Source of the DNA: Nemertoderma westbladi
Lineage: Eukaryota; Animalia; Xenacoelomorpha
Assembly (NCBI GenBank): GCA_032718475.1
Contig: JAUCBJ010002949.1
Location: 105,102-169,101 of the forward strand
Direction of reading: 5' to 3'
DNA: 64,000 bases
Part shown: one piece after another, positions 1 through 43,202 of the stretch
Numbering within the stretch: position 1 is the stretch's first letter
Layout: each line of letters begins with the position of its first letter
Translations under genes and position numbers: made by a program
Notes under the pieces: generated by a model
The model's database searches: none
Seen by the model: only the letters and a program-made list of their open reading frames with translations
What the model was told of the DNA's origin: nothing

Positions 1-3000
1 TCGATTGTATTTTCCTCGTCAAATAATTGGGTAATATCGTCGTTATCTGAGGAGTATGGTGTTCCCTCAGGTGTGATCTCTCCCTCACTGATTTCTTCTT
101 CCCATTCACTCACCTGATGTATTTGTTCGGTAGGTAATCTTTCCATGAGTGTTCTACGGGAAGGTCCAGTGAAGTACCAACCTACTCTAGTTCTTCCCGC
201 ATAGGTTTGCAATGGTTGCAGTCGAGCAGGCCGTTTCTCTAATGTCTCAAGCGCCTCATGCGCATTTTGGCCGATCAATATTTGCACCCCTGGGTAGTCG
301 GTGTTGAATCTAGGGATATTATGTTGCTGGGTAAAATCGTCTTCATCCCAGTTGTAAGGTTCTACTTGGCTGGTAGCAAAGTTCTTTATCGCCACCATTT
401 TTACTGACCTTATGCTATGTTCTCCTAGTTCGTCCTGGGGAGTGGACAACGCGCCTACATAGTAGTCTGTAGCTACTGTAGATTTCCAAACCTGCATAAT
501 TCCTGAAAGGTTCAACTTAGTTCGGAACTTGGGTTGTCCAGCAAAGATGTCTTCGGCTAGTTCTTTGTCGATGAATGTTCCTGTGCTGCCGGAGTCCAGG
601 AGGGCGTTGACTATAAAACTCTTACCTGATCCATGGACTCTCAGCTGAACTACGGGGAATTCCCGGATTCCGACGTTGGAAGTTGGCGCTTTCCAAGATG
701 GTTGTCGGTCAGGAATAGTCGGGTGCGCTTCGTTATCGGTTTCAGTCTCATACGTAAGCGCTCGATACACCGCGGTGTTTATCATATAACAGGATTCGTT
801 TTCGTCGGAGAATTCGTCCGTGTAAAATCCTTCCATCTCAGAACTGTGGTCAGTGTCGTTCACATCACTGAATTGGACATGTAGTTCGGACTCACTTACC
901 TGACTCGGGCTGGTTCTTTCAAATTCGGTGTGCAGCAAGATATGATGTTTCGCGCCGCACTTAGCACACCTCGCGTTGGAGTAACAGGTTCGCCGTTGGT
1001 GTCCTTGTCTGAGACAATTATAACACAACTGCTTATCCCACATGACATCGCGTCTATCCTTAAAGGATTTCTTTAAGAATTCATCACACACACTTAAACG
1101 ATGGGGCCTGTCGCACAATGCACATTTTGGTTTGATGTTACTTACTTTACCTTGGGTAGTGTTGTGCACACTCGTTCTTTCCTCGGGCTTTCTTCCATGA
1201 ATTATCTTAGGAGCTTTGGAGGAGTTTTTGTTACCTGTTCTCTCCTGTCACTGGTTCGAGACTTAAATTTACTTATGTCTTTAGGTGCTTTGTTGACATA
1301 GTAAGATCTTTCGGTGTCTTTCCCGCTGTTCTCCTCTTGAGAGGTTTGGCTTTCGCCGTCATCTGTATAACACACTGGGGTGACCTTTCTCCTAGAAACG
1401 GGTTTTTCAATTACCTTATTTTCCGGTGTCTTCTCTCGGGACTGCTTTAGGAGCTGTAATCTTACCTCTCCATTTAAGAATGACATGAGATCAGCCATGG
1501 TAGGGTCTCTTTGTTGCTGGTCCATCATATAGAGCACTCTCTTGTCCCAACGCGTACCTACTCCACCCTTCGGCAAAGTAGATGCTACGGCTCCAACAAC
1601 CATGGAACTCTGATATTCATGAGACTTACCTAGCCAATCTAGCTGTCTACAGATCTCCTGGATCTCATCAGAAAACTCTATAATCCCGCTGCTAAGGAAC
1701 TTTCGGGGCGCTACTAATTTCGCATACAAATACCTAGCTATGTTAGTCCTATTACCATACCTGATGTTTAGTGTATCCCAAACTTGTCTTAATCCATCTG
1801 GATGTCCAATAAACATTTTATCGCCATTAACTTGGGAGGTCCTTCCAAGCACTCGATGAGGAATCTAAGTTTCTCTCCGTTAGATAGTACAGAGCTCTGT
1901 ATGTTATCTTTATAATATTCATTAAAAGGTAACCATTTCATCTCATCTCCATTGAATTTGACGATCTCTCCCACCTTTACCACTTGACGGGCTTCGGTTC
2001 TAGCCATTTGACGCGTAAAACTTTCTTGGGCCATCGTATTATTTAATATCGAGTTATCGGTATATAAATTTCTCGGATTATGATCAGGTCTATATGGAAT
2101 ATCATTATCAACAGGTTTATAATTATCCTTGATAGGGTTTACTATAGGAGTTTCTACTTCACTAGCAGTATAGATGCGTGTAGGCTCCACACGTTGCGCA
2201 TGAAATACTTCAGACCTAACAGGTTGACACATTGTTACAGGGGGTGGTGGTATACCCCTTTGTATATTTACTAATTTATCGCGTTCTAACGCGATACTCT
2301 GCTGCACTTCTTGCAGTTCTAACCTCCCTCTCTTACTGTTCCCTTTAACTGCTGAACAATCCCTTCCAACTCCCGGACCTGTTGGGAGGAACGTGCCCGA
2401 TGTTCCTCCATTTGTCCGAGCAGGAGATCCATCCCCCGCCGTCGCTCATCCACCCACTCTACCGCCGAAGCGGGTGCCGCCAACATAGTAGGGAGTCTTT
2501 CTACTATAATAATTTGGTCTGTGTGTTCTGTACTACCTAAGTCTGCACTAGCTAGTTGCCTTCTCACAGCTGGGGGCAAATTAGGCAATTTCTGACGGTG
2601 GGGCGTTCTTCTACGTCTGCTGGAACGAGATCTATTTCCTCCGCCTTCAGGATCTGTTGTATCGCCTTCATCAGATGATATAAATCCCTGTCTCTTGGGA
2701 GTAGATCGACTTATCATCTGCATCTGACTAGCTGTTCTCTGTTTATCCATGTAGTCTTGCTTCTCTTGAAGATTTTCCAACTCTAGTTGGGTTGTCTCTT
2801 CAGACACCCTCCGTTCTGCTTCTGCCACTGCCTCTGCCGCTTTTCTTTCCGCTTCAGCCGCTGCTACTTTTCTTTCAGCTTCTGCCTCTGCCACTGCCGT
2901 TGCCGCTGCCGCTTTTCTTTCCGCTTCTGCCGCTGCCGCTGCCGTTGTCGCTTTTCTTTCAGCCTCTGCCGCTGCAGCTGCCGCTTTTCTTTCAGCCTCT

Positions 3001-4238
3001 GCCGCTGCTGCTGCCACTGCCGCTTTTCTTTCAACTTCTGCCGCTGCCGCTGCTGCTGCCAATCTGTCTTCTATCCGTTTTTTCTTTAATTGTTCCTCCT
3101 ATTCCCTAGCGATGAGGATGCTTTCATCAAATTTAGCCTGCACTGCGGCTAACATTTCCGCATCTAATGAGTCTAACACAAATTTGGCTCCCTCACTATT
3201 AGGGTGAAGTCCAGCTAGCCGTCTCCTTAGCTCTTTGTTACCTATAAATCGTTGATAGTCCGACAGATAGATGTCAATAGCATCCTTCTTCTGAGGTTTC
3301 TCCGATGTCGCTTCGCTTTCCACTTGAGAAAAGGTAGCGTCTGTTGATTCTCCGTGGGTTGAGCGCTCAGTTAGCTGAATTTTCCATTGGGTCGTTCCTT
3401 GGACTTTAAGACTCGCCCGTTGGAACCAAGTCTTTACGGCAACTTGCAACGACGTGTCTTGGCTTCTCTTCGAGGCTTCCTCAAAGGCCGAAAGGATTAG
3501 TCTGATTCTTAGGATTCGTTCTCGAACTTGATAAAGCAGCTCTCCCTGCTCTTGAGGTCCTTGGGGTTGTTGAAACAGTTGTTCCTCTAATCGCTCCAAA
3601 GAGCTGAAGAATCCCTGTACATATCCTGCTGCTGACCTCTTCCACACAGCTGGATCTCTAGTGTCCTTTACCACTCCCATCCTGTATAAGTCCTCCCAGG
3701 CAGCTTCCGATAAGTTAAACGGGAGTCCGGGTCCGGGGAAGTTCCATTGCGTCTCGACAATAGACTTCAGTTCCTCCTTCGTGTATCCCGCATAACTGTC
3801 CTTGGTCGATCGCTTACTTCTCGCCCAATCGATTTGATGTTCCTCCACCGCAATCAATACCCTAGTGAGTACGGCTTCAGGAAGAATGAGAAGTGGATCC
3901 GAATAAACTGCTTCTGCCATCTTTGCTCCGCGCTCGGGTGTCAACTCTACAGTATCTGAACTACTGGAGCTATCGGGCTGCTGAGAAATAAGTTCTCGGT
4001 TCGGGTGTTGCTGCTGTTTAACAGCTGCCTCTTGGTCCCGCTTGACTTGAGCCCGAGTGCCTATGATAGACCTACGGTGCTTTACTAGCCTAGGATCTGA
4101 TACTACTACTGGAGGGATGACCTTTCTTACAGTAGGAGGGGACTTGGACTTTGGTCTCAAATGTTCGGCACTCCTGTCGGAGTCGCAGACTGTTCTTTCT
4201 AGGAGACTATCTGACAGAGTTTGCTTTGTGTCAGCCAT
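1..4238 (-). pseudogene. Disrupted gag-protease(-pol) of copy A
   Basis: ORF pieces 3099-4238, 2319-3062, 1789-2307 and 1202-1852 match consecutive parts of the intact 46109-50275 protein, separated by frameshifts and stops. Positions 1-1200 encode the knuckles and aspartic protease. Confidence 0.92.
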
Positions 4239-6148
4239 GTTTGATTGTACAGTTGAATGCCTACTACTATAAACGACAGTTAAAGCAAGTCTAGTAATTC
4301 AGTATCAACTGTAAGCCTAGTAATTAATTACCGATACCGTTACTCAGTGTAACGCGATATATATATAATATATTAGAATACCGGTATACACTTATAGTAT
4401 ATATATAAGTATTATTACAGACTAGGATTTAGTCACAGAATACCGGTATATAATTTCAGCATAAATATATAGAAATATATATAATAAGCCTACCGTAAAT
4501 ACCGGTATACAGCATACACTTATAGTATATATAAGTATGATTATAGACTAGAGATTAATTACAGAATACCGGTATATAATTTCAGCTTAAATTTATAGAA
4601 ATAAATATAATAAGCCTATCGTAAATACCGGTAATGTCAATTATTTTACGATGCCTAAATTTCTGAATTTTAGGGTTACTTTCCTTTACTTTATTACTGT
4701 TATTAAGCAGTAGTCCAACTGATATTAAGACCTAATTGATGTATGACAGGCCTACTATTTTATAAATCGGTTTGAGTTGATTTATAATATATATATACCC
4801 GTATAATGGGTTTTTGACAATATTTGAAATAAATGTTATTATTTCCAAGTAAGGTGTCACTACACAGACGCTGAACGCTCTCAGTGGAGTGCTACCTGTT
4901 AGACACTAAAACAAATAATTCTACTTTACTAAGTTACTTATTACTACAAATTACGTACAATTACTGTGTAGGATTACAATTTCTAAATAAACACCAAAAG
5001 TTACACGTACAAATTTTAGGGTAATTTTACAGGAAATCTACAAACCAGCCTAACAAGGAGTTAGAATTTCTGGTTATTACAAACGGACAGGATACTACGG
5101 TATTTGAAAATAATTAAGCAGTAGTAAATAAATTGCGTTGTCCAGATAAGAAAATACCACCGTCTGACGACTTATAGTCTTTAGCTCTACAGCTCTATAA
5201 GTACTACGTTATGTACCCGGAGTGTCCTTACCTAGAAGTTAATTACCGCAGCCAACCAGAGCTAACGTGCCTATTAACCACTTTACAACACAAATATACT
5301 GCCTACACACCAATTACCTTCGGAAAGTACTGTACACTAAACCCTAAATTAGGTACAAGTACTTATACAACAAATAACCAGCAGTTAAATATACTTGTAC
5401 AGCTAAAAGAACCACGGTATCTGCTGGAGTGACTAGAGCATAAAATCACCAGTCTTTACCTACGCCAAGCAGCCCTGATGTAGTACCGGGGTTAATTTAA
5501 CTATAACGGTATGTATAACAAGCACAATTACTGTAGGAATAAACTTAGGGGTATGTAAGTTGCGAATACTCGCATAGACTCTGAATAATAAATAAATACG
5601 CTACCCGTGCAGACTACACAAACAAAATACAGACCAAACGCTGGCAGACTACTATCAAGCCTAAATAAACTACAGTATATGCAGACTCCGAAATGGTTAG
5701 TTAGTATGCGTTCTAACCGAGTAGTACGACTTATTCTTTCGGGGGGGATTTACCTTACAGCACTGGATGCCCCCACCTTCCTAACTAGTACTTTATCGGA
5801 CATACACTCTACACACACTGCAATCTCTTCAGACTTAACAACAGTCAGACAACAATCCAGCCTACAAATTATTTGTACAATTTGAGCGGGCTTACACGCC
5901 TTCTGCTCAATATTACACTTACAGATAAATAAAACTGACAGAAATAAATAAGCTCTAAAAGAAACAAGGGGTGTACAGTCCCTAATCTCTTAAACAGCCT
6001 ACCAATATACAATATCACAATCGAAATAATACTGGTACCGGTAAGTACCGGTTCGGGTGGTTAGGTAGTTAGGCCTACAGGTTACCGTCCGACCGGTACA
6101 TTCGACTTTATTGCCTACGGTGCAATAAAGAAACTAAAAATCTATTAT

Positions 6149-7321
6149 TGTTCGCGCTTTCAGACCTTTAGCAGTTTAACCTGCCAATTTTAGGTGTCCT
6201 CTTGTTTATAAATCGACTTTAGCCTATAACAAGTATTTAGTGCACATGAAGTAACATTAGCCGAAGCCAGTCTATGCGCGATCATTCACCCACAGTTAAG
6301 GGAGACTGGATTCGGGTGCTTTGAAGTTATTGCGTTGCAGACCTACTGTATTATTCGATTGATCGTTACTATATAATCTCTGACAATATTATTCACTTTC
6401 GGGGAAATATTAACAGTTCCTTTAGGACGTGGCGCTTTAAGTATAAAACAGAGTTATGACTTATACTAAACACAACGAGATGGCTACTGATTTTCGTAAA
6501 TAGCGCATTCTTTAGGAGATGCTTTATTATCTGTCACACTACTGCATACGACTTCACACTGCTGCACACTGATCTGCCGACCGTCACTGAATTTGATCAT
6601 ATATAAGGAGGATAGCAACTGACACATGTAGGGATTATGAAATAGCATTTAATTCACACTAAAACCACTATAATGTAAGTCGCAATTGCTACAGGTAACC
6701 GGTCCCTCTTACCTTCAGTAATCAAGAAGATTGGGGGTTTTATGATTATTTATCGGTATTCTCCAAATATAACAACATATCCATCAACATATAACAATTA
6801 ATAACAGACAGTAAACAGAAGTAAAATAATGCGGTGTATGGTATGCGTATGCAGTACCAGTGTATGGTTGCAGTGACAGTGTGCTCAGTGCAGATAATAG
6901 ATTTACGTTCTTATAATCAAAGCCGTCTAATGTTGGCCAAAGTCTGAAACTTCTACAGAAGCACAGAAATAATTTCCAAGCCGATGTTCTGAGGCTCAGA
7001 AAGGTAAACAAAAACCGTAATGCATTGCGCGGTTTTCCGTAGGCCTCTGTACAAGATAAAATGAAAATCGCTCTGATTGGCTGAGCTGAGCGAGCTGAAC
7101 AAAGAGATGTTCCACGTTTACAGTAAATCAGCTGACAGATTTCGTCATCTGAGTTCCAGTCTTTTAGAGTATTAGGCGCATTGCGGCAGAAAATGGCTTG
7201 TTATGTCCGCTAAAACACCCACACGGTACATTGCGGAGAAAATGGCTTGTTATGTCCGCTAAAACACCTACACGGTATATTGCGGAGAAAATGACTGGTT
7301 ATATCCGCAAAAGCTTTTACA
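6149..7321 (-). repeat. 5' LTR of copy A
   Basis: On the minus strand it starts TGTAAAAGC and ends GCGCGAACA, like the other LTRs; contains CCAATCAGAGCG. Confidence 0.93.
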
Positions 7322-7329
7322 GGGTTCAT

Positions 7330-9433
7330 TGACTTTCCTTGAGTTTGATATATCATTGGGGCAATGGTCCCCTCCATATCTCAGTGTCGCATGATTTCTT
7401 TGGATCTGAGGGGGTTGCAATTTGTAAAACTGGTATTATATTCTGTACTGGGGTAGATGTCATTATATTGGGACCCATACACTTATCTGCAATACCCCCA
7501 CCCCCCTCCCCTGGGTATATATTATATCTTTCCATATTATAGTCATACTGGCGTGCAGGTACCAGTATAGGCCTAACGGGTTGTTCCCTACTCACCAGTA
7601 TGTAAGCCGCGACTTCCGGATCTAATCCCGGCATTCGCATTACCCTATAACCAACACTATCTCTCCCAGCATGGCCTATAGTATGTGCAGTAAGACCTAC
7701 AGTATGTCCTGCAGTCTGAAAGTGGTCCTCCAGATTTAATCTTCTTGAATATTCCGAGAAGTCCTCCCCGCAACTACCATATCGTTGATCGGCAGTTACG
7801 TTACAGTGGGAAGTTTCCCTTTGACCCCTTCTTCTCCCATCATCTTCATCCCAGTATACTCTATGCCCTTCTCCTGGTGTGCAGTAAATGTTGCCAGGTT
7901 GCATTCCTTCAGGGTGATGGCAATATCCCAATTTACAACCCCACGATTCTCTCCCTCCACTACAACTATCGACAGTTAGCTGTCCGTCCTATCTCGGCAC
8001 CTCTGGTTGCCTGTAGCAACATTTCCTCGTGTATCCCTATCGTCCTCCTCACGACCTTTACTCCCCGGCATCATATCTACGTTCATGAGATCTCGTATCG
8101 ACCTCATGGATGAACCCTACTGCTCTCCTTCCATCTTCCGAATGGGTTCGACGTTCCCTCATTTGGCCGTTTGAGGTGCGAATGCTTCTTCCCCTTTCCG
8201 GTTGTATGGCCCCATAGATACTCGCTGACCCTCTATTATCCTCTTTTGTTGGGAGCCTTGGTTCACTTGACTCACCGCATGCATTCCCCACCAACATCTG
8301 TGGGGCATTCATTGCCCCCCCCCCCCCCCTCTCATCACTAGCTGGTTGTGGTGGGGTACCCATAGCCCCCCCCCCCCCCACCGATCACTTCTGGTTGCAC
8401 CCCCTTCATCTCTCTCCCTACGCTCTCTTCCAGTTGACACATCGCTTCTGTTTTCCCTGGGTTCATTCGCCTGCGTCTCCTTCTGCATTTCTACGCGGCT
8501 TTGTAGGCCTCTGTCAGGCAAATTATTTACTTCATTGTTGTTTATATTAATTATACCATTATTACTTTCACTATCATTATTTATTATATTATTATTATTA
8601 TTTAAATTATTTAAATTATTTACTGTACCGCATTAACATTATTATTATTCACCAAAACATTATTACATGTAAGAAGAGTGCCCTCGTTATTATTAGGATT
8701 ATCAACTATGGTATTATTAGTATTAACGTTCTCATTAAATGTTATTAGACCCCCCCCCCCCCCCCCATCTGTCCGGTCGCACCAGTTTTGTGTTTGCTGT
8801 CCGGTCCCAGTAAGTGGAGTATTAACAAAAGTTTCCATTACTCCTGGTTCCTCATAAATACTTCCCAAACCAGCCTCACTTTCTGATAAATACAGTTTTG
8901 GCATTTCTAACCAGCGTTTCAGTCTTACCTGATACTGCATTAACCCCCTCAACCAGGTATGCATATCATCCCGCATTCTCTTACCAGCCTCCTTCTTTCT
9001 CTATCCTATCTAATACTCTGGTTGGATAGCATGTTTTCCCTCTCAATCCTCTCAGCTTTCCTCGCATCTCTCTCTTTGCGCTGGTTCACCTCTCTCGCCT
9101 CCCTTTTTTTTACACTCACTCAGTTCCTTCTCCTCCTGTTCTTTACACTCACTCACTTCATTCTCCTCCTGTTCTCTACGCTCACTCGCTTCCTTCTCCT
9201 CCTGTTCTCTATAGTCTCTCGCCATCTTTTCGGCCCACTCTTTACATTCTCTCGCTAACTCCCTTTCCCTTTCTAACAGAGCAGTCCCCTCATCCAACTG
9301 TCTCTCTAACTCCCTTTGGTCCAGTGTGACCATGTCTAGCTGACACGCAGATCTATCTCTAACACTCTTCTTGCTTTCACGGAGGGTGTAGTGGACTTTT
9401 CAGTTGTGACGGACTCCCGTCGCCTGGCGGTTT
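7330..9433 (-). pseudogene. Decayed low-complexity ORF (coiled coil, N-rich, G/R-rich) of an older repeat, copy E1
   Basis: Fragments 9052-9333, 8620-8976 and 7353-7931 are homologous to 36374-36685 and 33920-34627 (shared LDQ.ELERQL.EGTALLERERELARE and QTAGHTVGLTAHTIGHAGRD). Confidence 0.7.
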
Positions 9434-10305: not shown

Positions 10306-10310
10306 GTGAC

Positions 10311-11497
10311 TGTAAAGGCTTTTGCGTAATTAGCCGGTTATTTTCCCCGTAAAGTACTCTGTAGTTGGTTTAACCGGCATAAAAGGCCGTGTCCTTACTG
10401 TACTGTTGTTTTAGAGGACATAAAAGCCATTTCTTCTGTATGTGTACTTTAGCGGACATAATTCGCAATTCTATGACGCAATACGCCAAATCCTCTGTAA
10501 ACAGTGTAGCTACCATGACGACGGCTAACAGCTGATGCTGTACACGTGGAGCTTGTTCTTTGTTCTCTGTTCCTTCTTTGTTCGGTCGACCAATCAGAGC
10601 GTTTTTTGCCTCTGTGTTGGAGATTGTATATAGAAACTCTTGGAGTTGAGTCAGTATGTGATTTTGTCCACAGCCTACAACACCGGCTTTGGAACCTCCG
10701 TGTTTCAGTCTTTAGCCCAACATTAGTAGGCTTAATTATAGAACGTATATCCGTTATCATATCAATCCATACATAACATATCATATCTCATTGATCACAT
10801 ATCTGCATTCATAACCATTCATACCTTAAACTTTGTACTGCTATTTACTGTCGGTTATTCATTATATTTGTTAATGGAATATTATATTTGGAATACTGAT
10901 AAATAATCAGACACCCCAATCTTCTTGATATACTAAAGGTTAGAGAGACCGGTTACATATAACGATTGCGACTTACATTAAATGGTTTGAAGTGAATCTA
11001 ATGCTATTTTATAGGCCCTACATGTATTGTCTGTTGTTCTCTTTATATGTGACTAAAATTAGTGAAGGTCGGCAGATCAGTGTGCAGCATTGTGCAGTAT
11101 TGTGTATGATTGTGACTGATAACAAAGCATCTCCTAAAGAATGCGCCATATACGTGAATCTATAGCCATCCCGTTGTGTCTAGTTTAAGTCATAACTCTG
11201 TTTACATATTTAGAGCGCCACATCCTAAAGGAACTGTTAATATTTCCCGAAAGTGAATAATATTTGTCAGAGATTATATATTACGATCAGTCGAATAATA
11301 CAGTAGGCCTACCCCGCAATACGGTGAGGCTTCCGAATCCAGTCTCCCGGGTATATCCAGCGGGTGAATGATCGCGCATAGACTGGCTTCGGCTAATGTA
11401 GTGTATCAAATACTTGTCATAGGCTAAAGACGATCTATCATCTAAAAGACATCCCAATTTGGCAGGTTAAACTGCTAAAGGTCTGAAAGCGCGAACA
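10311..11497 (+). repeat. 5' LTR of copy B
   Basis: TGTAAAGGC...GCGCGAACA; about 7 differences from 24345-25530 seen by eye. Confidence 0.97.
10590..10634 (+). promoter_or_regulatory. Probable LTR promoter: CCAAT box and TATA-like element
   Basis: CCAATCAGAGCG is kept in every LTR variant although the surrounding U3 diverges; TATATAGA follows ~35 bp downstream in B. Confidence 0.5.
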
Positions 11498-11536
11498 ATA
11501 ACGGATATTGCTTCTGTATTGCAGTAGGCAATAAAG
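11333..11536 (+). ncRNA. Conserved cis RNA structure at the U5/leader boundary, in place of a PBS
   Basis: Stems CCGAA/TTCGG and CCAGTCT/AGACTGG, and a loop TCGCGC complementary to terminal GCGCGA. All three change compensatorily in copy D. Confidence 0.7.
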
Positions 11537-11777
11537 CTGAAGTACCGGCAACCGGTACCCAGTAGGCCTGACTACCTAACCACCCGGACCGGTACCTACA
11601 GCAGTACAGGTACAGCAGTATTATTCGATTTTGATTATTATATACCAGTAGGTCTTAATAATTAATCGGGGACGCCTGGTTTTTATTGGGATTTTACTTA
11701 GGCCTATTTCTGTCAGTTTTATTTATTTGTAGGCTAATATTGAGCAGAAGGCATGTAAGCCTGCTCAGATTGTACAG

Positions 11778-12350
11778 ACAATTTGTAGGCTGGACTGTTG
11801 TCTGACTGTTGTTAAGTCTGAAGAGACTGTAGTGTGTGTAGAGCATATGTCCGAAAAAGTACTAGTTAGGAAAGTAGGGGCTGCCAGTGCTGTGAGGTGA
11901 ACCCCCTCGAAAGAATAAGTCGTACTACTCGGTTAGAACGCATACTAACTAACCATTTCGGAGTCTGCATATACTGTAGTGTATTTAGGCTTGATAGTAG
12001 TCTGTCAGCGTTTGGTCTGTACTTTGTTTGTGTAGTTTGTACGGGTAGCGTAATATTTCTTATTTAGATAATTTGTAGGCTGGATTTTGTCTGGCTGTTG
12101 TTAGGTCTTGAGAGATTTCGGTGTGTGTAGAGTGTATGTCCGATAAGGTGCCGGTTAGGAAAGTAGGGGCAGCCAGAGCTGTAAGGTAAATCCCCATCGA
12201 AAGAATAAGTCGTACTACTCGGTTAGAACGCATACTAACTAACCATTTCGGAGTCTGCATATACCATAGTTTGTTTGGGCTTGATAGTAGTCTGTCAGTA
12301 TTTGGTCTGCATTTTGTTTGAGTAGTCTGTACGCGTAGCGTAATATTTAT
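11778..12350 (+). repeat. ~290-bp tandem duplication in the leader
   Basis: Units start near 11778 and 12068 and share an identical ~60-bp core. Also duplicated in D (~51570-52140); single in A (~5600-5880). Confidence 0.85.
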
Positions 12351-13681
12351 TATTCAGAGTTTATGCTATTATTCGCAACATTCATATCCCCAAGTTTATT
12401 CCTACAGTAATTGTGCTTGTTATATATACCGTTATAGTTAAACTAACCCCGGTACTACATCAGGGCTGCTTGGCGTAGGTAAAGACTGGAGATTTTGTGC
12501 TTTGGTCACTCCGGCAGATACCGTGGTTCTTTTAGCTGTTCAAGTATTTTAACTACTAATTATTTGTTGTATAAGTACTTGTACCTAATTTAGGGTTTAG
12601 TGTACAGTACTTTCCGAAGGTGATTAGTGTGTAGGCAGTATATTTGTGTTGTAAAGTGGTTAATAGGCACGTTGGTTCTGGTAGACTGCGGTAATTAACT
12701 TCTAGGTAGGAACACTCCGTGATACATAACGTAGTACTTATAGCGATACGGCTATAAGTCGTCAGACGGTGGTATTTTCCTATCTGGACAACGCAGTATA
12801 TTTACTACTACTTATTATTTTCAAATACCGTAGTACCCTGTCCTTTGTAATAACCAGATATTCTAACCCTTTGTTAGGCTGGTTAGTAGACTTCTTGTAA
12901 AATTACCCTAAAAATTCGTACTTGTAAATTTTTTGTGTTTATTTAGAGATTGTAATCTCACCCCGAATTGTATGTAATTTGCAGTATTAAGTAACTTAGG
13001 TAAATTAGAATTATTTGTTTTAGAGTCTAACAAGTAGCACTTCACTGAGAGCGCACAGCTTCTGTTTAGTGACTTCCCCAGAAATAATAACATTTATTTC
13101 AAATATTGACAAAAACCCATTTTAACGGGTATATATATTATAAATCAACTCAAACTGATTTATAAAATAGTACGCCTGTCATACAACAATTAGGTCTAAA
13201 TATCAGTTGGACTACTGCTTAAATAACGGTAATAAAGTAAGTTAAAGTAACCAAGTAACCCTAAAATTCAGAAATTCAGTTATTCTAAAATAATTGACAT
13301 ACCGGTATTTACAATAGGCTTATTATATTTATTTCTATAAATTTTAGGCTGAAATTATACCGGTATTCTGTAATTAATTCTAGTTCATAATTATACTTAT
13401 ATATACTATAAGTGTAAGCTGCATACCGGTATTCACGATAGGCCTATTATATATTTATATATATTTGTGCTGAAATTACCTACCGGTATTCTGTGACAAA
13501 CCTAGTCTGTAATAATACTTATATATACTATAAGCATACCGGTATTCTAATATATTATATATATATCACGCTACACTGAGTAGCAGTATCGGTAATTAAT
13601 TACTAGGCTAACAGTGATACTGAATTACTAGACTTGCTTAAACTGTAATATAGCAGTAGGCATTCAACTGTGCAAACAAAT

Positions 13682-14767
13682 ATGTCTGACACAAAGCAAA
13701 ACCTGTCGGACAGTCTCCTAGATACAACCATCTGTGACCCAGACAGGAGTGTGGAACGAGTAGGACCGAAGTTCAACTCACCTCCTACTGTAAGAAAGAT
13801 CATCCCTCCCGTAGTAATATCAGACCCTAGGCTGGTCCAACATCGTAGGTCTATCATAGGCACTCGAGCTCAGGTCAAGCGGGACCAAGAAGCAGCAGAA
13901 CAGCAGCAACCCGTGAGCCAAGAACTTATTTATCAGCGGCCCGACAGCTCCAGTAATGCAGATACTGTAGAGCTGACACCCGAGCACGGCGCAAAGATGA
14001 CAGGTGCAGTTTATTCGGACCCCCTTCTCATCCTTCCTGCAGCCGTCCTCACTAGGTTATTGATTGCGGTGGAAGAACACCAGATCGATTGGGCGAGAAA
14101 TAAGCGATCCACTAAAGATAGTTATGCGGGATACACAAGGGAAGAACTGAAGTCTATTGTCGAGTCGCAATGGAACTTCCCCGGACCCGGACTCCCGTTT
14201 GATTTATCAGAAGCTGCCTGGGAAGACATACACAGGATGGGAGTAACCAAGGAAACCATCGATCCAGCTGTGTGGAAGAGGTCCGCAGCCGGATACGCAC
14301 AGGGATTCTTCAGCTCTATGGAGCGATTAAAAGAACAACTGTTTCAACAACCCCAAGGACCTCAAGAGCAGGGACAGCTGCTTTATCAAGTTAGAGAAAG
14401 AATTCTACGAATCAGGCTAATCTTATCGGCCTTTGAGGAGGCTTCTAAAAGAAGACAAGACACGTCGTTGCAAGTTGCCGTAAAGACTTGGTTTCAACGG
14501 GTGAGCCTCCAGGTTCAAGGAATGGCTCAGTGGAAAGCTCAGCTGGAGGAGCGCTCAACCCATGGAGAATCAACAGACGCTACTTTTTCCCAAGTGGAAA
14601 GTGAAGCGACGGCAGAGAAACCGCATAAGAGGGATGCCATTGACATCTATCTGTCAGACTATCAGCGCTTTTTAGGAGATGAAGAGTTGAGGAGAAGGTT
14701 AGATGGACTTAGCCCTAATAGTGAAGGAACCCAGCGATGTGGATATGAGAGCTGCGAACCAAGCTAG
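13682..14767 (+). CDS. Gag N-terminal part of copy B, frameshifted from the downstream ORF
   Basis: Homologous to the N-termini of 46109-50275 and 3099-4238. A net 17-nt deletion near 14732 relative to D breaks the frame. Confidence 0.85.
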   Translation: MSDTKQNLSDSLLDTTICDPDRSVERVGPKFNSPPTVRKIIPPVVISDPRLVQHRRSIIGTRAQVKRDQEAAEQQQPVSQELIYQRPDSSSNADTVELTPEHGAKMTGAVYSDPLLILPAAVLTRLLIAVEEHQIDWARNKRSTKDSYAGYTREELKSIVESQWNFPGPGLPFDLSEAAWEDIHRMGVTKETIDPAVWKRSAAGYAQGFFSSMERLKEQLFQQPQGPQEQGQLLYQVRERILRIRLILSAFEEASKRRQDTSLQVAVKTWFQRVSLQVQGMAQWKAQLEERSTHGESTDATFSQVESEATAEKPHKRDAIDIYLSDYQRFLGDEELRRRLDGLSPNSEGTQRCGYESCEPS

Positions 14768-17700
14768 ATTTGATGAACGCCTTCGCATCACTAGAGTCCA
14801 AGAAGAACAAGTGAAGAAAAAACGTGTAGAAGACAGAAAGGCAGCGGCAGTGGCAGCAGCAGTGGCAGCTGCAGAAGCAGAAAGAAAAGCGGCAGTAGCA
14901 GTGGCAGAGGCAGAGGCGGAAAGAAAAGCGGCAGCGGCAGAAGCGGAAAGAAAAGCGGCAGTAGCAGCGGCAGAGGCAGAGGCGGAAAGAAAAGCGGCAG
15001 CGGCAGATGCGGAAAGAAAAGCGGCAGTGGCAGCGGCCGAAGCGGAAAGAAAAGCGGCAGAGGCAGTGGCAGAAGCAGAACGGAGAGCGGCTGAAGAAAC
15101 CACCCAATTAGAATTGGAAAACATTCAGGAGAATCAAGACTGCATAAATAAACAGTTAACAGCTAGTAATATGCAGATGATGAATCGATCTACTCCCAAA
15201 AGACAGGGATATACATCATCTGAGGAAGGCGATACCACCGATACTGAAGGCAAAGGAAATAGATCTCGTCTAAGCAGACGTAGAAGAACATCCCACCATC
15301 AGAAATTGCCTGATTTGCCTCCAGCTGTTAGAAGGCAACTAAATAACACAAACTTAGGTAGTACAGAACCCACAGACCAAATAATTAAAATAGAAAGACT
15401 CCCTACTATAGTAGATGAGCCTGAAATAATTAGGCCTATTCCCGAAGCCACCCTTTCGGTGGTAGAGACACCTGTACTCCCTGAACCTACCTCTAAATTC
15501 CCTCTGCACAGCACTAAGCTACCTGTGCCCAGCAGAACAGCCCATGAGACAATCCATGTCCTGGACTCCGAGCGAAATATTAATGATTTGTCGCCCGTTG
15601 TCCCTCGTCCGCCCGCTACAACGTTGGCGGCTCCCGCTTCGGCGGTCGAGTGGGTGGATGAGAGACGACGGGGGATGGATCTCCTGCTCGGGCAGATGCA
15701 GGAGACCGTTCAGCAATTCAAGGGCACAGTAAGGGAAAGTAGGTTAGAGTTGCAAGAAGTGCAGCAAAGTATCGCGTTAGAACGCGATAAATTAGTAAAT
15801 ACACAAAAGGGTATACCACCACCCCCGGTAACAATGTGTCAACCTGTTAGGTCTGAAGTATTTCATGCGCAAGGTGTGGAGCCTACACGCATATATACTG
15901 CTAGCGAAGTAGAAACTCCTATAGTGAACCCTATTAAGGGTAATTATAGACCTGTTCATAATGATATTCCCTATAGACCTGATCATAATCCGAGAAATTT
16001 ATATACCGATAACTCGATATTAAATAACACGATGGCCCAAGAAAGTTTTACGCGTCAAATGGCTAGAACCGAAGCCCGGCAAGCGGTAAAGGTGGGAGAG
16101 ATCGTCAAGTTCAATGGAGATGAGATGAAATGGTTACCTTTTAATGAATATTACAAAGATAACATACAGAACTCTGTGCTATCTAATGGAGAGAAACTTA
16201 GATTCCTCATCGAGTGCTTGGAAGGATCTCCCAAGTTAATGGCGTTAAAGTTTATTGGACATCCAGATGGATTAAGACAAGTTTGGGATACACTAAACAT
16301 CAGGTATGGTAATAGGAATAACATAGCTAAATATTTGTATGCAAAATTAGTAGCGCCCCGAAAGTTCATTAGCAGCGGGATAATAGAGTTTTCCGATGAG
16401 ATTCAGGAGATCTGTAGACAATTAGATTGGTTAGGTAAGTCTCATGAATATCAGAGTTCTATGGTTATTGGAGCCGTGGCATCTACTTTACCGAAGGGTG
16501 GAGTAGGTACACGCTGGGATAAGAAAGTGTTGTACATGATGGAACAACAACGACGAGACCCTACCATGGCTGATCTCATGTCATTCTTAGATGGAGAAGT
16601 GAAATTACAGCTCCTAAAACAGTCCAGAGAGAAGACACCGGAAAACAAGGTAAGTGAGAAACCCGTTTCTAGGAGAAAGGTAACACCAGTGTGTTATACA
16701 GACGACGGCGAAAGCCAGACTTCTCAAGGAGAGGATAGCGGGAAAGACACTGAAAGATCTTATTATGTCAATAAAACGCCTAAAGAACAGGTAAGTAAAT
16801 TCAAGTCTCGAACCAATGACAGGAGAGAACAGGTAAGAAAAACTCCTCCTACGTCTCCTAAGAGAATTCAGGTGAGAAAGCCCGAAGAAAGAACGAGTGT
16901 GCACAATGTTATTCAAAATAAGGTAAGTAACATCAAACCGAAATTTGCGCTATGTGACGGGACCCACCGTTTGAATATGTGTGATGAATTCCTGAAGAAA
17001 TCATTAGCGGAGAGACGGGAAGTCATGTGGGATAAGCGGTTGTGTTATAATTGCCTCAGACAAGGACACCAACGGCGAACCTGTTACTCCGACACAAGGT
17101 GTGCAAAGTGCGGTGCGAAACATCATATCTTGATGCACACTGAATTCGAGCGAAACAGCCAGAGTCAGGTAAGTGAGTCCGAACTACATGTCCAATTCAG
17201 TGATGTGAACGACACTGACCAATATTCTGAGATGGAAGGATTCTATACGGACGAATTCTCCGACGAAAACGAATCCTGTTACCTGACAAATACCGCAGTG
17301 TATCGAGCACTTACGTATGAAAAGGACACCGACAGCGAGCTCCCCCTAACTACTTCTGACAGACAACCATCTTGGAAAGCACCAACTTCCAATGTAGGAA
17401 TCCGAGAATTTCCTGTAGTACAGTTAAGGGTCCACGGACCTACAAGGAGTTATATAGTGAACGCCCTCCTTGACTCCGGTAGTACAGGAACATTCATCGA
17501 CAAAGAACTAGCCGAAGACATCTTTGCTGGACAACCCAAGTTCCGAACTAAGCTAAACATGTCAGGAATTATGCAGGTTTGGAAATCTACCGTAATAGCG
17601 GATTATTATGTAGGCGCGTTGTCCACCCCCCAGGATGAACTAGGAGAACACAGCATAAGGTCAGTAAAAATGGTAGCGATAAAGAACTTCGCTACCAGCC

Positions 17701-18374
17701 AAGTGGAACCTTATAACTGGGATGAGGACGATTTCACCCAGCAGCTTGAAATACCTAGATTCAACACCGATTACCCTGGAGTCCAAATACTCATCGGTCA
17801 AAATGCGCATGAAGCGCTCGAGACATTGGAGAAACGGTCTGCTCAACCGCAACCACTACAAGCTTATGTGGGAAGAACTAGAGTGGGTTGGTACTTTACT
17901 GGCCCTTCCCGTAGAACTCTCATGGAAAGATTACCGAAAGATCAGGTATATCAAGTAAGAGAATGGGAAGATGAGAGCAGTGAGTTAGACGATCCAACTG
18001 AGGGAAGACCATACTCCTCAGATAATGACGACATCAACTCCAATGTAGATCAATGGAGACATTGCCCCGAGACGATTAATCTAGCCGACATCGCCTCCAG
18101 AGGAGCAACTCCTCAAGAACTGACAGATACTCCAGACTGGTTAGGTGAACCCGACTTCCTAAGTAAAGAAGATGAATGGCCTCCCCACCTTAACCCGGCT
18201 GAGATTAGACAGGCCAAGGGAGCGGAGAAAGTAACACAACAACTCAAGCGCCCAGCTGGTCGTTTATATTTACTAGAAAGAGACCGAAAACTGTCCGGAA
18301 ACTATGGAAGGCAAGATACTCTTCCTACGACCACTTCCCTAATCCGACAATTATCTAGGGACTCCATAACGTAA
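14703..18374 (+). CDS. BEL/Pao Gag-protease with remnants of RNase H and integrase
   Basis: Capsid-like KFNGDEMKWLPF...EKLRFL, knuckles CYNCLRQGHQRRTC and CAKCGAKHHILMH, protease ALLDSGS, RNase H end QWRHCPETINLADIASRG, integrase tail KRPAGRLYLLE. No YxDD RT and no DDE core. Confidence 0.92.
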   Translation: MDLALIVKEPSDVDMRAANQARFDERLRITRVQEEQVKKKRVEDRKAAAVAAAVAAAEAERKAAVAVAEAEAERKAAAAEAERKAAVAAAEAEAERKAAAADAERKAAVAAAEAERKAAEAVAEAERRAAEETTQLELENIQENQDCINKQLTASNMQMMNRSTPKRQGYTSSEEGDTTDTEGKGNRSRLSRRRRTSHHQKLPDLPPAVRRQLNNTNLGSTEPTDQIIKIERLPTIVDEPEIIRPIPEATLSVVETPVLPEPTSKFPLHSTKLPVPSRTAHETIHVLDSERNINDLSPVVPRPPATTLAAPASAVEWVDERRRGMDLLLGQMQETVQQFKGTVRESRLELQEVQQSIALERDKLVNTQKGIPPPPVTMCQPVRSEVFHAQGVEPTRIYTASEVETPIVNPIKGNYRPVHNDIPYRPDHNPRNLYTDNSILNNTMAQESFTRQMARTEARQAVKVGEIVKFNGDEMKWLPFNEYYKDNIQNSVLSNGEKLRFLIECLEGSPKLMALKFIGHPDGLRQVWDTLNIRYGNRNNIAKYLYAKLVAPRKFISSGIIEFSDEIQEICRQLDWLGKSHEYQSSMVIGAVASTLPKGGVGTRWDKKVLYMMEQQRRDPTMADLMSFLDGEVKLQLLKQSREKTPENKVSEKPVSRRKVTPVCYTDDGESQTSQGEDSGKDTERSYYVNKTPKEQVSKFKSRTNDRREQVRKTPPTSPKRIQVRKPEERTSVHNVIQNKVSNIKPKFALCDGTHRLNMCDEFLKKSLAERREVMWDKRLCYNCLRQGHQRRTCYSDTRCAKCGAKHHILMHTEFERNSQSQVSESELHVQFSDVNDTDQYSEMEGFYTDEFSDENESCYLTNTAVYRALTYEKDTDSELPLTTSDRQPSWKAPTSNVGIREFPVVQLRVHGPTRSYIVNALLDSGSTGTFIDKELAEDIFAGQPKFRTKLNMSGIMQVWKSTVIADYYVGALSTPQDELGEHSIRSVKMVAIKNFATSQVEPYNWDEDDFTQQLEIPRFNTDYPGVQILIGQNAHEALETLEKRSAQPQPLQAYVGRTRVGWYFTGPSRRTLMERLPKDQVYQVREWEDESSELDDPTEGRPYSSDNDDINSNVDQWRHCPETINLADIASRGATPQELTDTPDWLGEPDFLSKEDEWPPHLNPAEIRQAKGAEKVTQQLKRPAGRLYLLERDRKLSGNYGRQDTLPTTTSLIRQLSRDSIT

Positions 18375-19971: not shown

Positions 19972-20012
19972 ATATATAAACTCATTATAATATTGATAAA
20001 CTCATAGCAGAT

Positions 20013-23000
20013 ATGACTGAGTTGATAGAAGATGATCTTGGTATCAGGGAGCGATATACTCTACCTTTACAAGCGTTTGTCGATATCTTGATACGCGGCG
20101 ACGCTGGTCCAACCACTACGGAGGATGATGGTCGTTATATCGAACCACCAATGTCACCGGAGCAACTTACGCGTGAATTGGATTATAGAAAGTTCACCGC
20201 TCGCTATACGCATCGTAATGGTACGTATATGGACTTCTTAACTACTGGCCATCCTATCGATTTACACGATACGGACGATGTAGACACTGAAAGGGAAATG
20301 GTTTTATTTAAATATCATACCCAGCGGAGTCGGAACGATAAACCGAGAATAGAACACGAGAACTCTATTCGAAACAAACTCGAAAGGGAAGACGTTGAAG
20401 AGCCGGATAAACGCCGCGACTTTAACGATTATCTGGAATTCCTGAGAGAGACATATCTCAATATTGCCAGCCAACAAAATCTCGAAACTAGATATCCTCA
20501 AGGTATACATCATGACCCTATGATAGAACTCAAACGACTCTATTTCACTATAATGTATCTTACCGCCGATCGACCGCTACCTGTCGTCCCAGATAGCTTC
20601 GAACAGATGGAGGAATATTGTAAAACTGGAGAACGATCACCCGCGTTTCCCCTGCAGGACGTGTGTCTTTGGTATTACTGCGACGAGTGCCCTAGACCCA
20701 ATCAGCAAACGGAAAGACATAAACATCCGCGGAGACGTTGCGCTAAACACAGTTTTACACAATATACTTATGGGAGTTTCGAGCGAAACCTGTTCAACAT
20801 ATCCCCTACGGTTGCTCGGCTCGAACGATCCTTGAACAAACCAATGATCAGAGTTCCGGAATACTCGGTCAGACCTCCTCATTCCTCAGTTAGACCTCAG
20901 ACTCTTGATCCTAATAGTATCACGGATCCTCCCGAACTGTATTCGCTGTTCAAAGATCTAGTGTTACCCGAACAGTTGATTGGTGGCACTCCGGTAGTAG
21001 GCTCGCTAGATATTCGCCAACCCTACCGAGCTGGATTGGGACGCAGTCATCTAATATCGCCGTTTAACCCACACAACCGTCCCGGCTTCACCTCGATACA
21101 ACCCGTTACGGAAGTCGAAGAGAGCGTCGTACGAAACGCGTTAGACGCTATTCGGCAGAAAATCGGAAAGGGAACTTACGATTGTTTGGAGAAACGTAAA
21201 TTGCAACAACAAGTCCAAGCGGTGAAGGAATTAGCTTTACCCCAGTTCGATAGAGAAATACAAAATCTCGAGGAGGACATCGAACGTGGACGAACCTACT
21301 CTTTACAAGAGTTCCTAGATGAGCGTCTACAACAACAAGCGGAGGAAAATCAGCTCGAGGAGAGACATATAGAACTAGATGAGAGAGAAGAAGCAGCTTT
21401 AGCTCAACCCGAAGCTCAAATCCTTATGACGGATCTCTACTCTAAAACCATCCTTCATCCCTCGATGGTTCCCCATTTCGGAGACAAACTCTTTGCGACG
21501 ATACAACCCCAACCGGTTGATATCAACCTAAGATCTAGAGATCTTATCGCTGACGCTCCCATGTTGCAACGTCCACCCATCGAAGCCGCTCATGTAGATG
21601 GTATACTCGTTGAACCTCCGGACAATAGAGCGGATCTTGTCCGTCGCATGGTACACGATGTAAACATACGCGCTAGACCTTTACCGGACTCGTTTTATGG
21701 GATCAAAGATCACCCTTATTACGTTAACCTAACACAATATTACATGGTAAAACCGGAAGATCCTACACATAGTCTGAGGTTTCTGCCACTCATAAATCCT
21801 CTCGATCTTGTCGAACTCGAACAACTGCATAAACATCTGGATCAGTTGGTTAAAATAAACTCATTTCGAAAACCATACAATGTTTCCAGAATAGAGAAAG
21901 AAACAATACCTCCGTATAATCTTGATGGATTCATCAAAACTCGTTTAGTACACTGGAATCTTGACGTGTTATTCGTGGAGGAAAGAATACAACGATATGG
22001 AGATGTGGAAACATATACCACACAATATTTAAAGTATAGAGACCTACCTAATGCTAGCAAATGCGCTACCTTGTGGCATCCTGTGGGAATGACCCTCGAA
22101 AACGCCACTAAAGAGTGGAATGAGACTCTTAACGTTATCGAGATGTATGGAGTTGTCACCTATGACAACGAAGGTAGCGTTCCGGTTGGAGAACTGGGAA
22201 CTACGCGGATGATACACATACGAGGACTCGCTGGTTCTACCCACGTATTTACTCGAGCGTGTTCCGATGTGATTGATTATTCTTTTGAAACTCTTACTGA
22301 GACACAAAAGAGACTCCGACATGGACAATTCGAGCTCGCGCAGCGTTACGTCGCCGACACCGAGCGCAAACCGGCCATGGGTATCGATGGATCGATGTTA
22401 CCCCAGCCCGTGCTCGAGATGTTGTTTAACGAAAGAATCCTTAAAATCGGCTCAGCTGTTTATGGAGATCTAAAAAACGACTTTCGGAATATGGAAAACA
22501 TTCCATATCCTTTCGTGGATACTCAGCTGATTGCTCCCTGGGCAGAAGGCCGAGGTTTCTTCCGCACTATGTATGCCAATACACCCAGCGGCATTACTAA
22601 AGTACAACGAACCTCCATCGGACATCTTGCCTTTCAAGAATACGGATGGAATTTCAAGGTTGGAAATCCTATAAATTACCAACAAGTATATGGAGATCAT
22701 TATTCTCATTTATACTTTGATGGACCATTGACCGCACCTGGCGCCGTGTATAGCTTTATGAGTGTTCCACTTCGTCCCTCCTTAGCTATATACACGATCT
22801 TTGAAAATGCAGCACTTGCCGGTTGGCTAGCCGATGTGTGCAGTCGTACCATACGCGCCCATCCCTTAATACTTGGAACCAAACTCGCCAAGTTAGATGA
22901 ACACAATAAATTCCTCCGCTTCGAATGTTTCAGGCGCTTTCTGACTCCGTTCCGTAACGTTGATAGTCAGTTCAAGGACTGCGCTCTGACCAAACTCAGC

Positions 23001-24336: not shown

Positions 24337-24344
24337 GGGAGCGG
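24337..24344 (+). other. Polypurine tract-like sequence GGGAGCGG
   Basis: Directly abuts the 3' LTR in B, C (39722-39729) and D (43125-43132). Confidence 0.75.
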
Positions 24345-25530
24345 TGTAAAGGCTTTTGCGTAATTAGCCGGTTATTTTCCCCGTAAAGTACTCTGTAGTT
24401 GGTTTAACCGGCATAAAAGGCCGTGTCCTTACTGTACTGTTGTTTTAGAGGACATAAAAGCCATTTCTTCTGTATGTGTACTTTAGCGGACATAATTCGC
24501 AATTCTATGACGCAATACGCCAAATCCTCTGAAACAGTGTAGCTACCATGACGACGGCTAACAGCTGATGCTGTACACGTGGAGCTTGTTCTTTGTTCTC
24601 TGTTCCTTCTTTGTTCGGTCGACCAATCAGAGCGTTTTTTGCCTCTGTGTTGGAGATTGTATATAGAAACTCTTGGAGTTGAGTCAGTATGTGATTTTGT
24701 CCACAGCCTACAACACCGGCTTTGGAACCTCCGTGTTTCAGTCTTTAGCCCAACATTAGTAGGCTTAATTATAGAACGTATATCCGTTATCATATCAATC
24801 CATACATAACATATCATATCTCATTGATCACATATCTGCATTCATAACCATTCATACCTTAAACTTTGTACTGCTATTTACTGTCGGTTATTCATTATAT
24901 TTGTTAATGGAATATTATATTTGGAATACTGATAAATAATCAGACACCCCAATCTTCTTGATATACTAAAGGTTAGAGAGACCGGTTACATATAACGATT
25001 GCGACTTACATTAAGTGGTTTGAAGTGAATCTAATGCTATTTTATAGGCCCTACATGTATTGTCTGTTGTTCTCTTTATATGTGACTAAAATTAGTGAAG
25101 GTCGGCAGATCAGTGTGCAGCATTGTGCAGTATTGTGTATGATTGTGACTGATAACAAAGCATCTCCTAAAGAATGCGCCATATACGTGAATCTATGGCC
25201 ATCCCGTTGTGTCTAGTTTAAGTCATAACTCTGTTTACATATTTAGAGCGCCATGTCCTAAAGGAACTGTTAATATTTCCCGAAAGTGAATAATATTTGT
25301 CAGAGATTATATATTACGATCAGTCGAATAATACATTAGGCCTACCCCGCAATACGGTTAGGCTTCCGAATCCAGTCTCCCGGGTATATCCAGCGGGTGA
25401 ATGATCGCGCATAGACTGGCTTCGGCTAATGTAGTGTATCAAATACTTGTCATAGGCTAAAGACGATCTATCATCTAAAAGACATCCCAATTTGGCAGGT
25501 TAAACTGCTAAAGGTCTGAAAGCGCGAACA
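24345..25530 (+). repeat. 3' LTR of copy B
   Basis: Direct repeat of 10311-11497, followed by TSD GTGAC. Confidence 0.97.
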
Positions 25531-26551
25531 GTGACTGTCGCTATAAGGCTTGGGCCTGAAAGGCCGATATAATAAAGATCTGCATTTAAAGCTTGTGGAT
25601 ATTGATAATGTCAGATATATGAGTATCGGTAATACAGCACAATCAGTATTGCACAATGACAGCAGTAACGTCGACGGTTTTAACCATTTAACTTCTACTT
25701 GAATACTAGCCAACTGAATCATAATTAATACTGAATAAAAGTTATATGGAGATTGCATCGAAGATTACACATATTGCCTACTGTATCGACCTACCAATAG
25801 ATGCATGCTAATTTATGGTGTACCGCCCCACTATTGGTTGGTTTACTTTCCTTGGCCACACCCTATCTTTCCTGGCCCTGTGCTGTCTTCCCCCTGAGAT
25901 GTATTGGTATCTCTCTCCAGCTGGCAGTGTATATTGCCTTATTCCCTCTGGTATGCAATATTGGGTTGGACAATATTGCATATCTAATCGTAATTCGTAT
26001 ATCACGATTTCCCCATTTTCTCAATGGGTGGTGCACTGGATTGGATCCGCTAACAAGATGTCCCATATTCACTTTACCACACCTAGAGGCAGACTGGTTA
26101 ACTGTTGTCGATATACACTTTTCGCTGTAATTACTGTAATTGATGTAATATTGATCTAATCTGGTTTGAGAATATTATTGAAAATTGTTTTTGACATTTT
26201 TTTGTTCCGTCAATACTGATAGTTCATTTGTATGATATATGTATTGCGTATGAATATCTAACCCTGGCGTGTGTATGTAGGCCTACATTACTATCCTACA
26301 TGATTGATTTAACATTATTGCGGTTACTTTATTGAGGTTATTTAATTTGCAATTAAACGATGTGTTCACTCTCTTTAATTATCATAAAGTTCTACAAATA
26401 TATATTTCAGTACAAATACAACAATTTTTTACCGGTAACTTTAAAGAGTTATGAACAGACTTGAACTCTCTGTACCTTAGTTTATATTTGTTGTGTATTG
26501 TGTTAATGAATAACGTTTCTTATTGGATGAATACTAAGGCTTTTGGTTATA

Positions 26552-43124: not shown

Positions 43125-43202
43125 CCGCTCCCAGAAAATGGGATTTGAGTCTATGAAATATACAAAATCACAGTTTCGAATATACGTAAATACTCTAAAC
43201 GG

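Follow-up and report, generated by a model that had tools for sequence, protein, structure and literature searches.

A candidate self-primer and a U5 pseudoknot point to probable Tf1-like priming in a BEL/Pao-derived LTR element family

Comparison of the window (the whole 64-kb stretch of DNA analysed here) with itself revealed four related LTR elements, here called A to D, together with fragments of further copies. The LTRs and neighbouring features that define these elements are as follows (coordinates are those of the window):

10311-11497, + strand: 5' LTR of element B, 1187 nt, with TG...CA ends
24345-25530, + strand: 3' LTR of element B
10306-10310 and 25531-25535, + strand: 5-bp target-site duplication of element B, GTGAC
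24337-24344, + strand: short purine-rich tract adjoining the 3' LTR, identical in B, C and D
53860-52589, minus strand: 5' LTR of element D
43124-41853, minus strand: 3' LTR of element D
7321-6149, minus strand: 5' LTR of element A
38582-39721, minus strand: 3' LTR of element C, which has the U5 structure and lies next to unrelated flanking DNA, the negative control for the primer-binding site (PBS)

Element D is likewise flanked by a 5-bp target duplication, TCACG, and the LTR boundaries of both B and D are thereby confirmed. The two LTRs of each element are nearly identical (1180 of 1186 aligned positions in B; 1268 of 1271, or 99.8%, in D), indicating that both moved recently and did so with the PBS they now carry. 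Element D (41848-53865, minus strand), together with its 5-bp duplication, sits within the start of ORF2 of copy C, a member of the same family. Public contigs bearing the same organism label show that the family is large and diverse (10863 records in X1 and 2892 in X2).

The coding content was followed in element B, where two long coding regions occupy the interior:

13649-18374, + strand: Gag-protease, in two overlapping frames (13649-14767 and 14703-18374)
19980-24266, + strand: ORF2, 1428 codons from stop to stop

The first of these carries a DUF1759 Gag domain (PF03564, 42.9 and 48.1 bits against a Pfam cut-off of 25.4), and the four Gag homologues recovered among 4530 candidates are all full BEL/Pao polyproteins, every one of them carrying PF05380, PF03564, PF17921 and PF18701. 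The protease of B is followed directly by some 40-50 residues that resemble the end of a BEL RNase H. When the four full BEL polyproteins were searched against the 64 kb with tblastn, matches were restricted to Gag-protease and these ~40-50 residues at the RNase H end, and no match to reverse transcriptase (RT) or integrase was obtained. The elements therefore present a divided picture: a BEL-type Gag and protease and TG...CA LTRs with a target-site duplication are present, while a pol with RT, RNase H and integrase is missing, as is an 18-nt tRNA PBS (judged by the missing TGG and by variation at 5 of the 11 PBS positions). By these sequence characters the family is BEL/Pao-derived, and the copies in the window are non-autonomous rather than full BEL/Pao members. 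An autonomous partner was not found among the window ORFs, by tblastn with the BEL polyproteins or in metagenome scans; the 13 further window ORFs gave no Pfam hits, a metagenome scan for Gag returned 16 pattern matches and no confirmed relatives, and one for the conserved hairpin motif described below returned no matches. Within Gag, an alanine-rich, coiled-coil-like repeat varies in length among the copies (14810-15107, 2787-3069 and 49415-49568).

ORF2 contains a 3'-5' exonuclease-like region (~22160-22810) and a zinc-knuckle-like region (~23420-23550). It has no Pfam hit and no PDB hit, and a word index yielded no homologues among 4663 candidates. A representative library held a single distant relative, P0005 (E 4.6e-7), which shares the exonuclease-like block and the zinc knuckles with ORF2 and itself matches PF01612 weakly (E 0.2); a search from P0005 produced no further relatives. 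In the Atlas, 24 of the 30 hits to ORF2 are clusters of PF01612 3'-5' exonucleases (score 0.90), with 144-149 shared features, fewer than for most true family members. Candidate DEDDy acidic motifs were located by eye at residues 728, 824 and 938, and the structure model (pLDDT 29.9) was too low in confidence to use. Assignment of ORF2 as a 3'-5' exonuclease is, on this evidence, only a lead. Approximately residues 137-1086, including the exonuclease-like region, are missing from the ORF2 of element D; since D has nevertheless moved recently, that part of ORF2 is not needed in cis. The first-pass annotation had suggested a possible link between the U5 structure and an ORF2 nuclease, for which we found nothing beyond the co-occurrence of the two, with the identity of the nuclease itself a lead at most; any role of ORF2 in priming would be speculation.

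The leader of B between PBS and gag is long (~2.1 kb, 11509-13648) and contains a duplicated 290-bp block at 11776-12358 and AT-rich inverted repeats near 13300-13570; these leader features are conserved in A and D. An array of 84-bp tandem repeats lies just downstream of the PBS region of D (52307-52558), and B has no such array.

The sequence that follows the 5' LTR is where a primer would be expected to bind, and here all three available 5' LTRs (A, B and D) continue with ATAA and not TGG, as the first-pass annotation had observed. The nearest TGG lies 179 nt downstream of the 5' LTR in B and 144 nt downstream in A, and in D there is none within 200 nt. What does adjoin each 5' LTR is a stretch of 11 nt that is perfectly complementary to a segment inside the same LTR:

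10747-10757, + strand: candidate 11-nt self-primer of B, fully complementary to 11498-11508
11498-11508, + strand: PBS of B, 11 nt, abutting the terminal CA of the LTR, without TGG
6894-6904, minus strand: candidate self-primer of A
6138-6148, minus strand: PBS of A
53371-53381, minus strand: candidate self-primer of D
52578-52588, minus strand: PBS of D

In A, B and D alike, this 11-nt Watson-Crick complement begins immediately downstream of the terminal CA, and its partner occupies the same alignment column of the LTR, 740-782 nt upstream of the LTR end. When the 14-mer following each 5' LTR was scanned along the whole of its own LTR, that column ranked first in all three. The longest perfect complement was 11 nt in A, B and D versus 4, 5 and 5 nt for the flanks of three 3' LTRs (this test took in 1101 of the 1140 nt of the C LTR, which fell 39 nt short at its 5' end, and the duplex scan took in all 1140). 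Under a Markov null, an 11-nt match anywhere in the LTR arose in 27, 28 and 12 of 20000 trials (one figure per LTR), and control offsets of 12-399 in the leader gave such a match in 1 of 1164 cases. Because the elements are kin, the three Markov probabilities are not independent and covariation is the better test.

By that test the pairing is strict. All 33 primer-PBS pairs in the three elements are Watson-Crick, with no G-U pair among them, and each of the five positions (of 11) that vary is compensated on the other side, two on the A branch, one on the B branch and two on the D branch; when the primers are crossed between elements, only 7-8 of the 11 positions pair. The match ends abruptly, with a T.T mismatch at position 12 in A, B and D, and in all three the primer is preceded by T and followed by C. 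The C at 10752 of B is a minority letter in the public contigs, where T accounts for 88% (X1) and 96% (X2) of summed contig depth, a quantity that is not a copy count, and the PBS of B has the G that matches this minority C. The 3' LTR of C has a change in the last base of the primer column. Folding of the predicted 5' RNA assigned the primer-PBS pairs probabilities of 0.55-1.0 (A) and 0.36-1.0 (D), mostly above 0.8, and only 0.11-0.52 in B; the model cannot represent crossing helices, and from copy to copy the program forms either the U5 stems or the terminal helix described below. We regard the 11-nt complement, as seen in three copies from one window, as a candidate Tf1-type self-primer/PBS pair.

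Other candidate primers were considered and set aside. One picked by eye at ~11168-11178 can pair only by including G-U pairs and a bulge, comes fourth in B and lies outside the top six in A and D, and a further match to the 11-mer, at 61520, falls in an unrelated repeat array. ARAGORN detected no tRNA genes in the window, so there is no element-encoded tRNA. A truncated A-type LTR at 29816-30245 (minus strand) ends a few bases past the primer column.

Downstream of the primer column, the U5 end of the LTR is predicted to fold into a compact structure that engages the LTR terminus:

11333-11392, + strand: U5 stem domain, with helices 11333-37/11388-92, 11339-45/11380-86 and 11346-48/11362-64 and loop 11365-11379
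11369-11377, + strand: loop segment complementary, apart from one mismatch, to the final 9 nt of the LTR (8 pairs)
11489-11497, + strand: LTR terminus, partner of 11369-11377
11459-11478, + strand: invariant 7-bp hairpin

The first-pass annotation had drawn these helices, including the conserved TTGGCAG/CTGCTAA hairpin, which proves invariant over its 7 bp, and a pseudoknot between the loop and the end of the LTR. All of them hold: across six LTR copies from four lineages the 30 pairs are intact in 180 of 180 cells, where slid controls are 27-42% paired, and the pseudoknot helix extends two pairs past its mismatch (11369-70 with 11496-97) to reach the last base of the LTR. The double changes that had been described for them are likewise borne out, with caveats. 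Three of the 30 pairs change on both sides, one has a single-sided change (C-G to U-G, in copy C) and 26 never vary; the three double changes all fall on the D branch, whose two LTRs (D5 and D3) belong to a single element. No covariation comes from the CCC/GGG and TTGGCAG/CTGCTAA helices, as these are invariant. The contrast between paired and unpaired columns is steep: relative to B, A, C and D differ at 0, 1 and 6 of the 60 paired columns and at 34, 38 and 35 of the 117 unpaired ones. The six paired-column differences between B and D make up three complete pairs, an outcome with a probability of 8e-5 by a simple count for a structure that was chosen post hoc. Folded alone, the 221-nt region is not unusually stable (z -1.36, with 18 of 200 shuffles as good).

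The domain had also been proposed as an RNA-processing element, and this found no support: Rfam gave no family near its gathering score in either B or D (best E 0.49 for the B region and 0.33 for the D LTR). A hammerhead-like reading of the UGAAUGA loop, made by eye, fails on its spacing and on the changes in D. The most suitable interpretation of the U5 pseudoknot is that it forms one of the two arms flanking the primer duplex in a Tf1-like structure of three duplexes, namely the arm on the 5' side, and that it is neither a primer nor a processing ribozyme. As for the tRNA-independent priming that the pseudoknot had been taken to indicate, the proposal gains far stronger support from the covarying 11-nt self-primer at 10747-10757, which lies outside the interval first annotated, while the pseudoknot is not itself the primer.

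A candidate for the remaining arm of such a structure was obtained by scanning the LTR with the 19-25 nt that follow the PBS, a scan that was not blind, since the end of the query had been set at a conserved block:

11307-11331, + strand: 5' strand of the third arm, pairing with 11510-11529
11510-11529, + strand: 3' strand of the third arm, which can alternatively form a local hairpin with the following GCAATAAAG

In B the resulting helix has 19 bp (-24.7 kcal/mol), ranks first in the LTR and is equalled by none of 60 nulls. That of D has 14 bp (-15.1 kcal/mol), also ranks first and is equalled by 7 of 60 nulls, and that of A has 13 bp (-13.4) and ranks third, with the best duplex of A equalled by 27 of 60 nulls. 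In all three elements the helix lies at a homologous place just upstream of the U5 stem domain. It competes with the local hairpin and is in part palindromic. A both-sided change in the B helix breaks the competing hairpin, and D has another both-sided change. Taken on these comparisons, pairing of the post-PBS leader with the LTR as a third arm is probable. The arm also includes a 10-nt palindrome (11303-11312 and the homologous place in D), whose central two pairs differ in concert between B and D and which could be a dimerisation site.

The arrangement resembles that of the yeast element Tf1. According to the accessible part of PMC7175516, the first 11 bases of Tf1 RNA pair with the PBS, RNase H cuts between bases 11 and 12, and the plus-strand cDNA ends in PBS sequence; self-priming with the RNA's own 5' bases is described as well in the accessible parts of PMC4600332 and PMC5341516, and a three-duplex 'pretzel' in that of PMC10085805. 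As far as PMC7175516 and PMC10085805 are accessible, the elements studied here share two things with Tf1/Tf2 (Schizosaccharomyces pombe), Tj1, Tosmo1-3, Tcry1 and the Tf1/sushi (Tcn1) chromoviruses, namely an 11-nt complement between the LTR interior and the sequence after the CA, and two more duplexes that join PBS-adjacent sequences with the LTR downstream of the primer, the one from the post-PBS leader being probable here. All three elements have the ~11-nt complementarity of the post-LTR sequence to the LTR interior, and all six LTR copies have the 8-pair duplex that joins the LTR terminus to upstream U5, with one both-sided change among them. Unlike Tf1/sushi elements, which are Ty3/gypsy, those described here have a BEL/Pao-type rather than a chromovirus Gag, no integrase and presumably an animal host. 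Their primer and PBS are 740-782 nt apart, they have no RT/RNase H in cis and their priming is predicted from sequence; in addition, it is the loop of an extra stem domain that offers the LTR-terminal arm for pairing. By the comparison of sequences, the element resembles Tf1 in how its priming region is built and is not a Tf1/sushi member.

With BEL/Pao elements (Belpaoviridae, Semotivirus) the family shares the DUF1759 Gag, TG...CA LTRs of ~1.2 kb and a short purine tract. According to the ICTV description, Belpaoviridae have a complete pol and are primed by tRNA-Arg or tRNA-Gly at a PBS of 18 nt (PMC8742986); such a pol and such a PBS are both missing here. Outside BEL/Pao, the accessible part of PMC6317226 states that self-priming has been reported for Tf1/sushi and is predicted for the plant Tcn1 and TAR lineages, the latter (Houba and Osr-1, plant Ty1/copia elements) from a complement of at least 10 nt between the post-LTR sequence and the 5' LTR. 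The elements described here have a complement of that kind; they differ from the TAR lineage in superfamily and host, and no flanking structure is described for TAR in the accessible part of that source. A further parallel concerns ORF2: Juno and Vesta of bdelloid rotifers encode a DEDDy exonuclease in ORF3, proposed to act in RNA 3'-end processing (PMC5408684, accessible part), and thus likewise have an extra ORF for a DEDDy-like 3'-5' exonuclease downstream of gag-pol. Set against them by description, as far as that source is accessible, ORF2 differs in its 1428 codons and its zinc knuckles, and Juno and Vesta are not described as BEL/Pao elements.

The term PBS does not occur in the text on Juno and Vesta in PMC5408684, and PBS, primer and tRNA are absent as terms from the main text of the BEL/Pao survey PMC3118150. 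The accessible parts of PMC3601003, PMC5443660 and PMC6934838 include no case of BEL self-priming. The literature consulted, a scope that excludes most subscription papers, Repbase/GyDB entries and supplements, has no description of BEL/Pao self-priming. New here is the predicted occurrence of the full pretzel, comprising primer and both arms, in a BEL-derived family.

How the primer might be generated depends on where the transcript begins and ends, for which the LTRs offer several conserved signals:

10898-10903, + strand: column of a candidate poly(A) signal, recognised by inference only, GATAAA in A and B, TATAAA in D

This column lies 151-155 nt after the primer start and has U-rich sequence upstream. 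A conserved CCAAT box is found 157-176 nt upstream of the primer, and there is no TATA box at -30 of the primer start; a conserved ATTATA is present at -12/-13 relative to the primer in all three elements, and could fit a poly(A) signal at least as well. A transcript that began at the primer would have an R+U5 of 750-790 nt, which is long. The dinucleotide GT stands directly before the primer (10745-10746 in B, and likewise in A and D), and a conserved AACATTA lies ~30 nt upstream.

We consider it likely that these elements prime as Tf1 does, with the 5' end of their own RNA and with two helices bracing the primer duplex, and very likely that they self-prime in one form or another. The transcript would have base 1 of the 11-mer (10747 in B) as its initial nucleotide, a placement suggested by the sharp pairing boundary, the T|A step, the CCAAT box upstream and the poly(A) signal column downstream. 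The 5' end of the RNA would then fold back ~750 nt onto the PBS, and the flanking helices would stack on the primer duplex and present the bond after base 11, where a helper RT/RNase H, acting in trans from an autonomous BEL relative, would cut. Extension of the new 3' end into the LTR terminus would melt the pseudoknot, the terminus being the first bases copied. A poly(A) site ~170 nt downstream of the primer start would leave an R region for strand transfer. Plus-strand synthesis would copy the primer back into the PBS, so that every change would be mirrored and the pairs kept strictly Watson-Crick. ORF2 would be an accessory gene. A more ambitious version, in which BEL/Pao independently evolved the whole Tf1 apparatus together with a U5 pseudoknot that gates the start of cDNA synthesis, the ORF2 exonuclease matures the primer 3' end and the cis module parasitises a helper RT, seems to us rather doubtful.

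Self-priming could also proceed from the other end of the RNA, with the 11-mer marking the cleavage/poly(A) site in the 3' LTR, the RNA 3' end annealing to the PBS and an exonuclease, possibly ORF2, trimming the tail. The ATTATA 12-13 nt before the primer, and hence ~23 nt before the primer's 3' end, in all three elements speaks for this, ATTATA being a rare poly(A)-signal variant; the CCAAT box 157-176 nt upstream would permit an earlier start, and ORF2 does resemble 3'-5' exonucleases. The 60 nt after the primer, however, are not U/GU-rich (T 20-32%, G 3-15%), the better signal column, with its U-rich upstream sequence, lies 151-155 nt further downstream, the sharp 11-nt boundary at the T|A step is explained more simply by a transcription start, and nothing links ORF2 to the LTR, all of which makes priming from the 3' end unlikely. 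Also conceivable is a primer cut from an internal position or taken from a separate LTR-derived RNA, either a second transcript or an excised intron, as the GT directly before the primer in all three elements and TATA-like and initiator-like motifs seen by eye ~300 nt downstream of it might suggest. A primer assembled at a splice junction was rejected because the 11-mer is contiguous in the DNA and requires no splicing to build, and the donor-like hexamer varies freely with the PBS; we hold an internal or separate origin of the primer to be quite improbable.

The two remaining readings give the pairings or the U5 domain another role. If the pairings were long-range RNA structure serving packaging, dimerisation or regulation, priming might fall to a host tRNA fragment or some other RNA, in keeping with the description of BEL/Pao as tRNA-primed (PMC8742986) and with the half-tRNA primers of copia-type elements (PMC6317226, accessible part). 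Yet the complement begins exactly after the CA and has no G-U among its 33 pairs, no TGG occurs within 140 nt of any 5' LTR, and one host tRNA cannot match the PBS of all three closely related elements when these differ at 5 of its 11 positions, so that we find this very unlikely. Least credible in our estimation, with hardly any chance of being right, is the idea that the primer is released by the U5 domain, acting as a novel catalytic or processing RNA. The domain is compact and conserved, with 0-6 changes in 60 paired versus 34-38 in 117 unpaired columns, its joining loop never varies and its architecture goes beyond that of a simple helix, and the element is without an RNase H of its own. 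Against catalysis stand the absence of any Rfam family near its gathering score in B or D and the failure of the hammerhead-like reading; moreover, known ribozymes leave a 2',3'-cyclic phosphate, which is unable to prime.

BEL/Pao elements are listed as tRNA-primed, and their replication is poorly understood (PMC8742986). If Tf1-type priming from the RNA 5' end is correct, the same RNA architecture would have arisen again in a third superfamily, a recurrence that would suggest that RT/RNase H imposes a common structural requirement where synthesis is initiated. The start base, the cut site and three helices are all specified exactly by the prediction, which also offers annotators a rule to apply when a BEL element seems to lack a PBS.

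Beyond the LTR elements, the window holds a second repeated family, which is C-rich (7442-8391 and 33964-34890) and near which lie open frames of 150-275 codons without a Pfam match. Two arrays of ~160-bp units occur in inverted orientation at 56900-57979 and 60518-61549, and a satellite of ~94-bp units occupies the window end (63246-64000).
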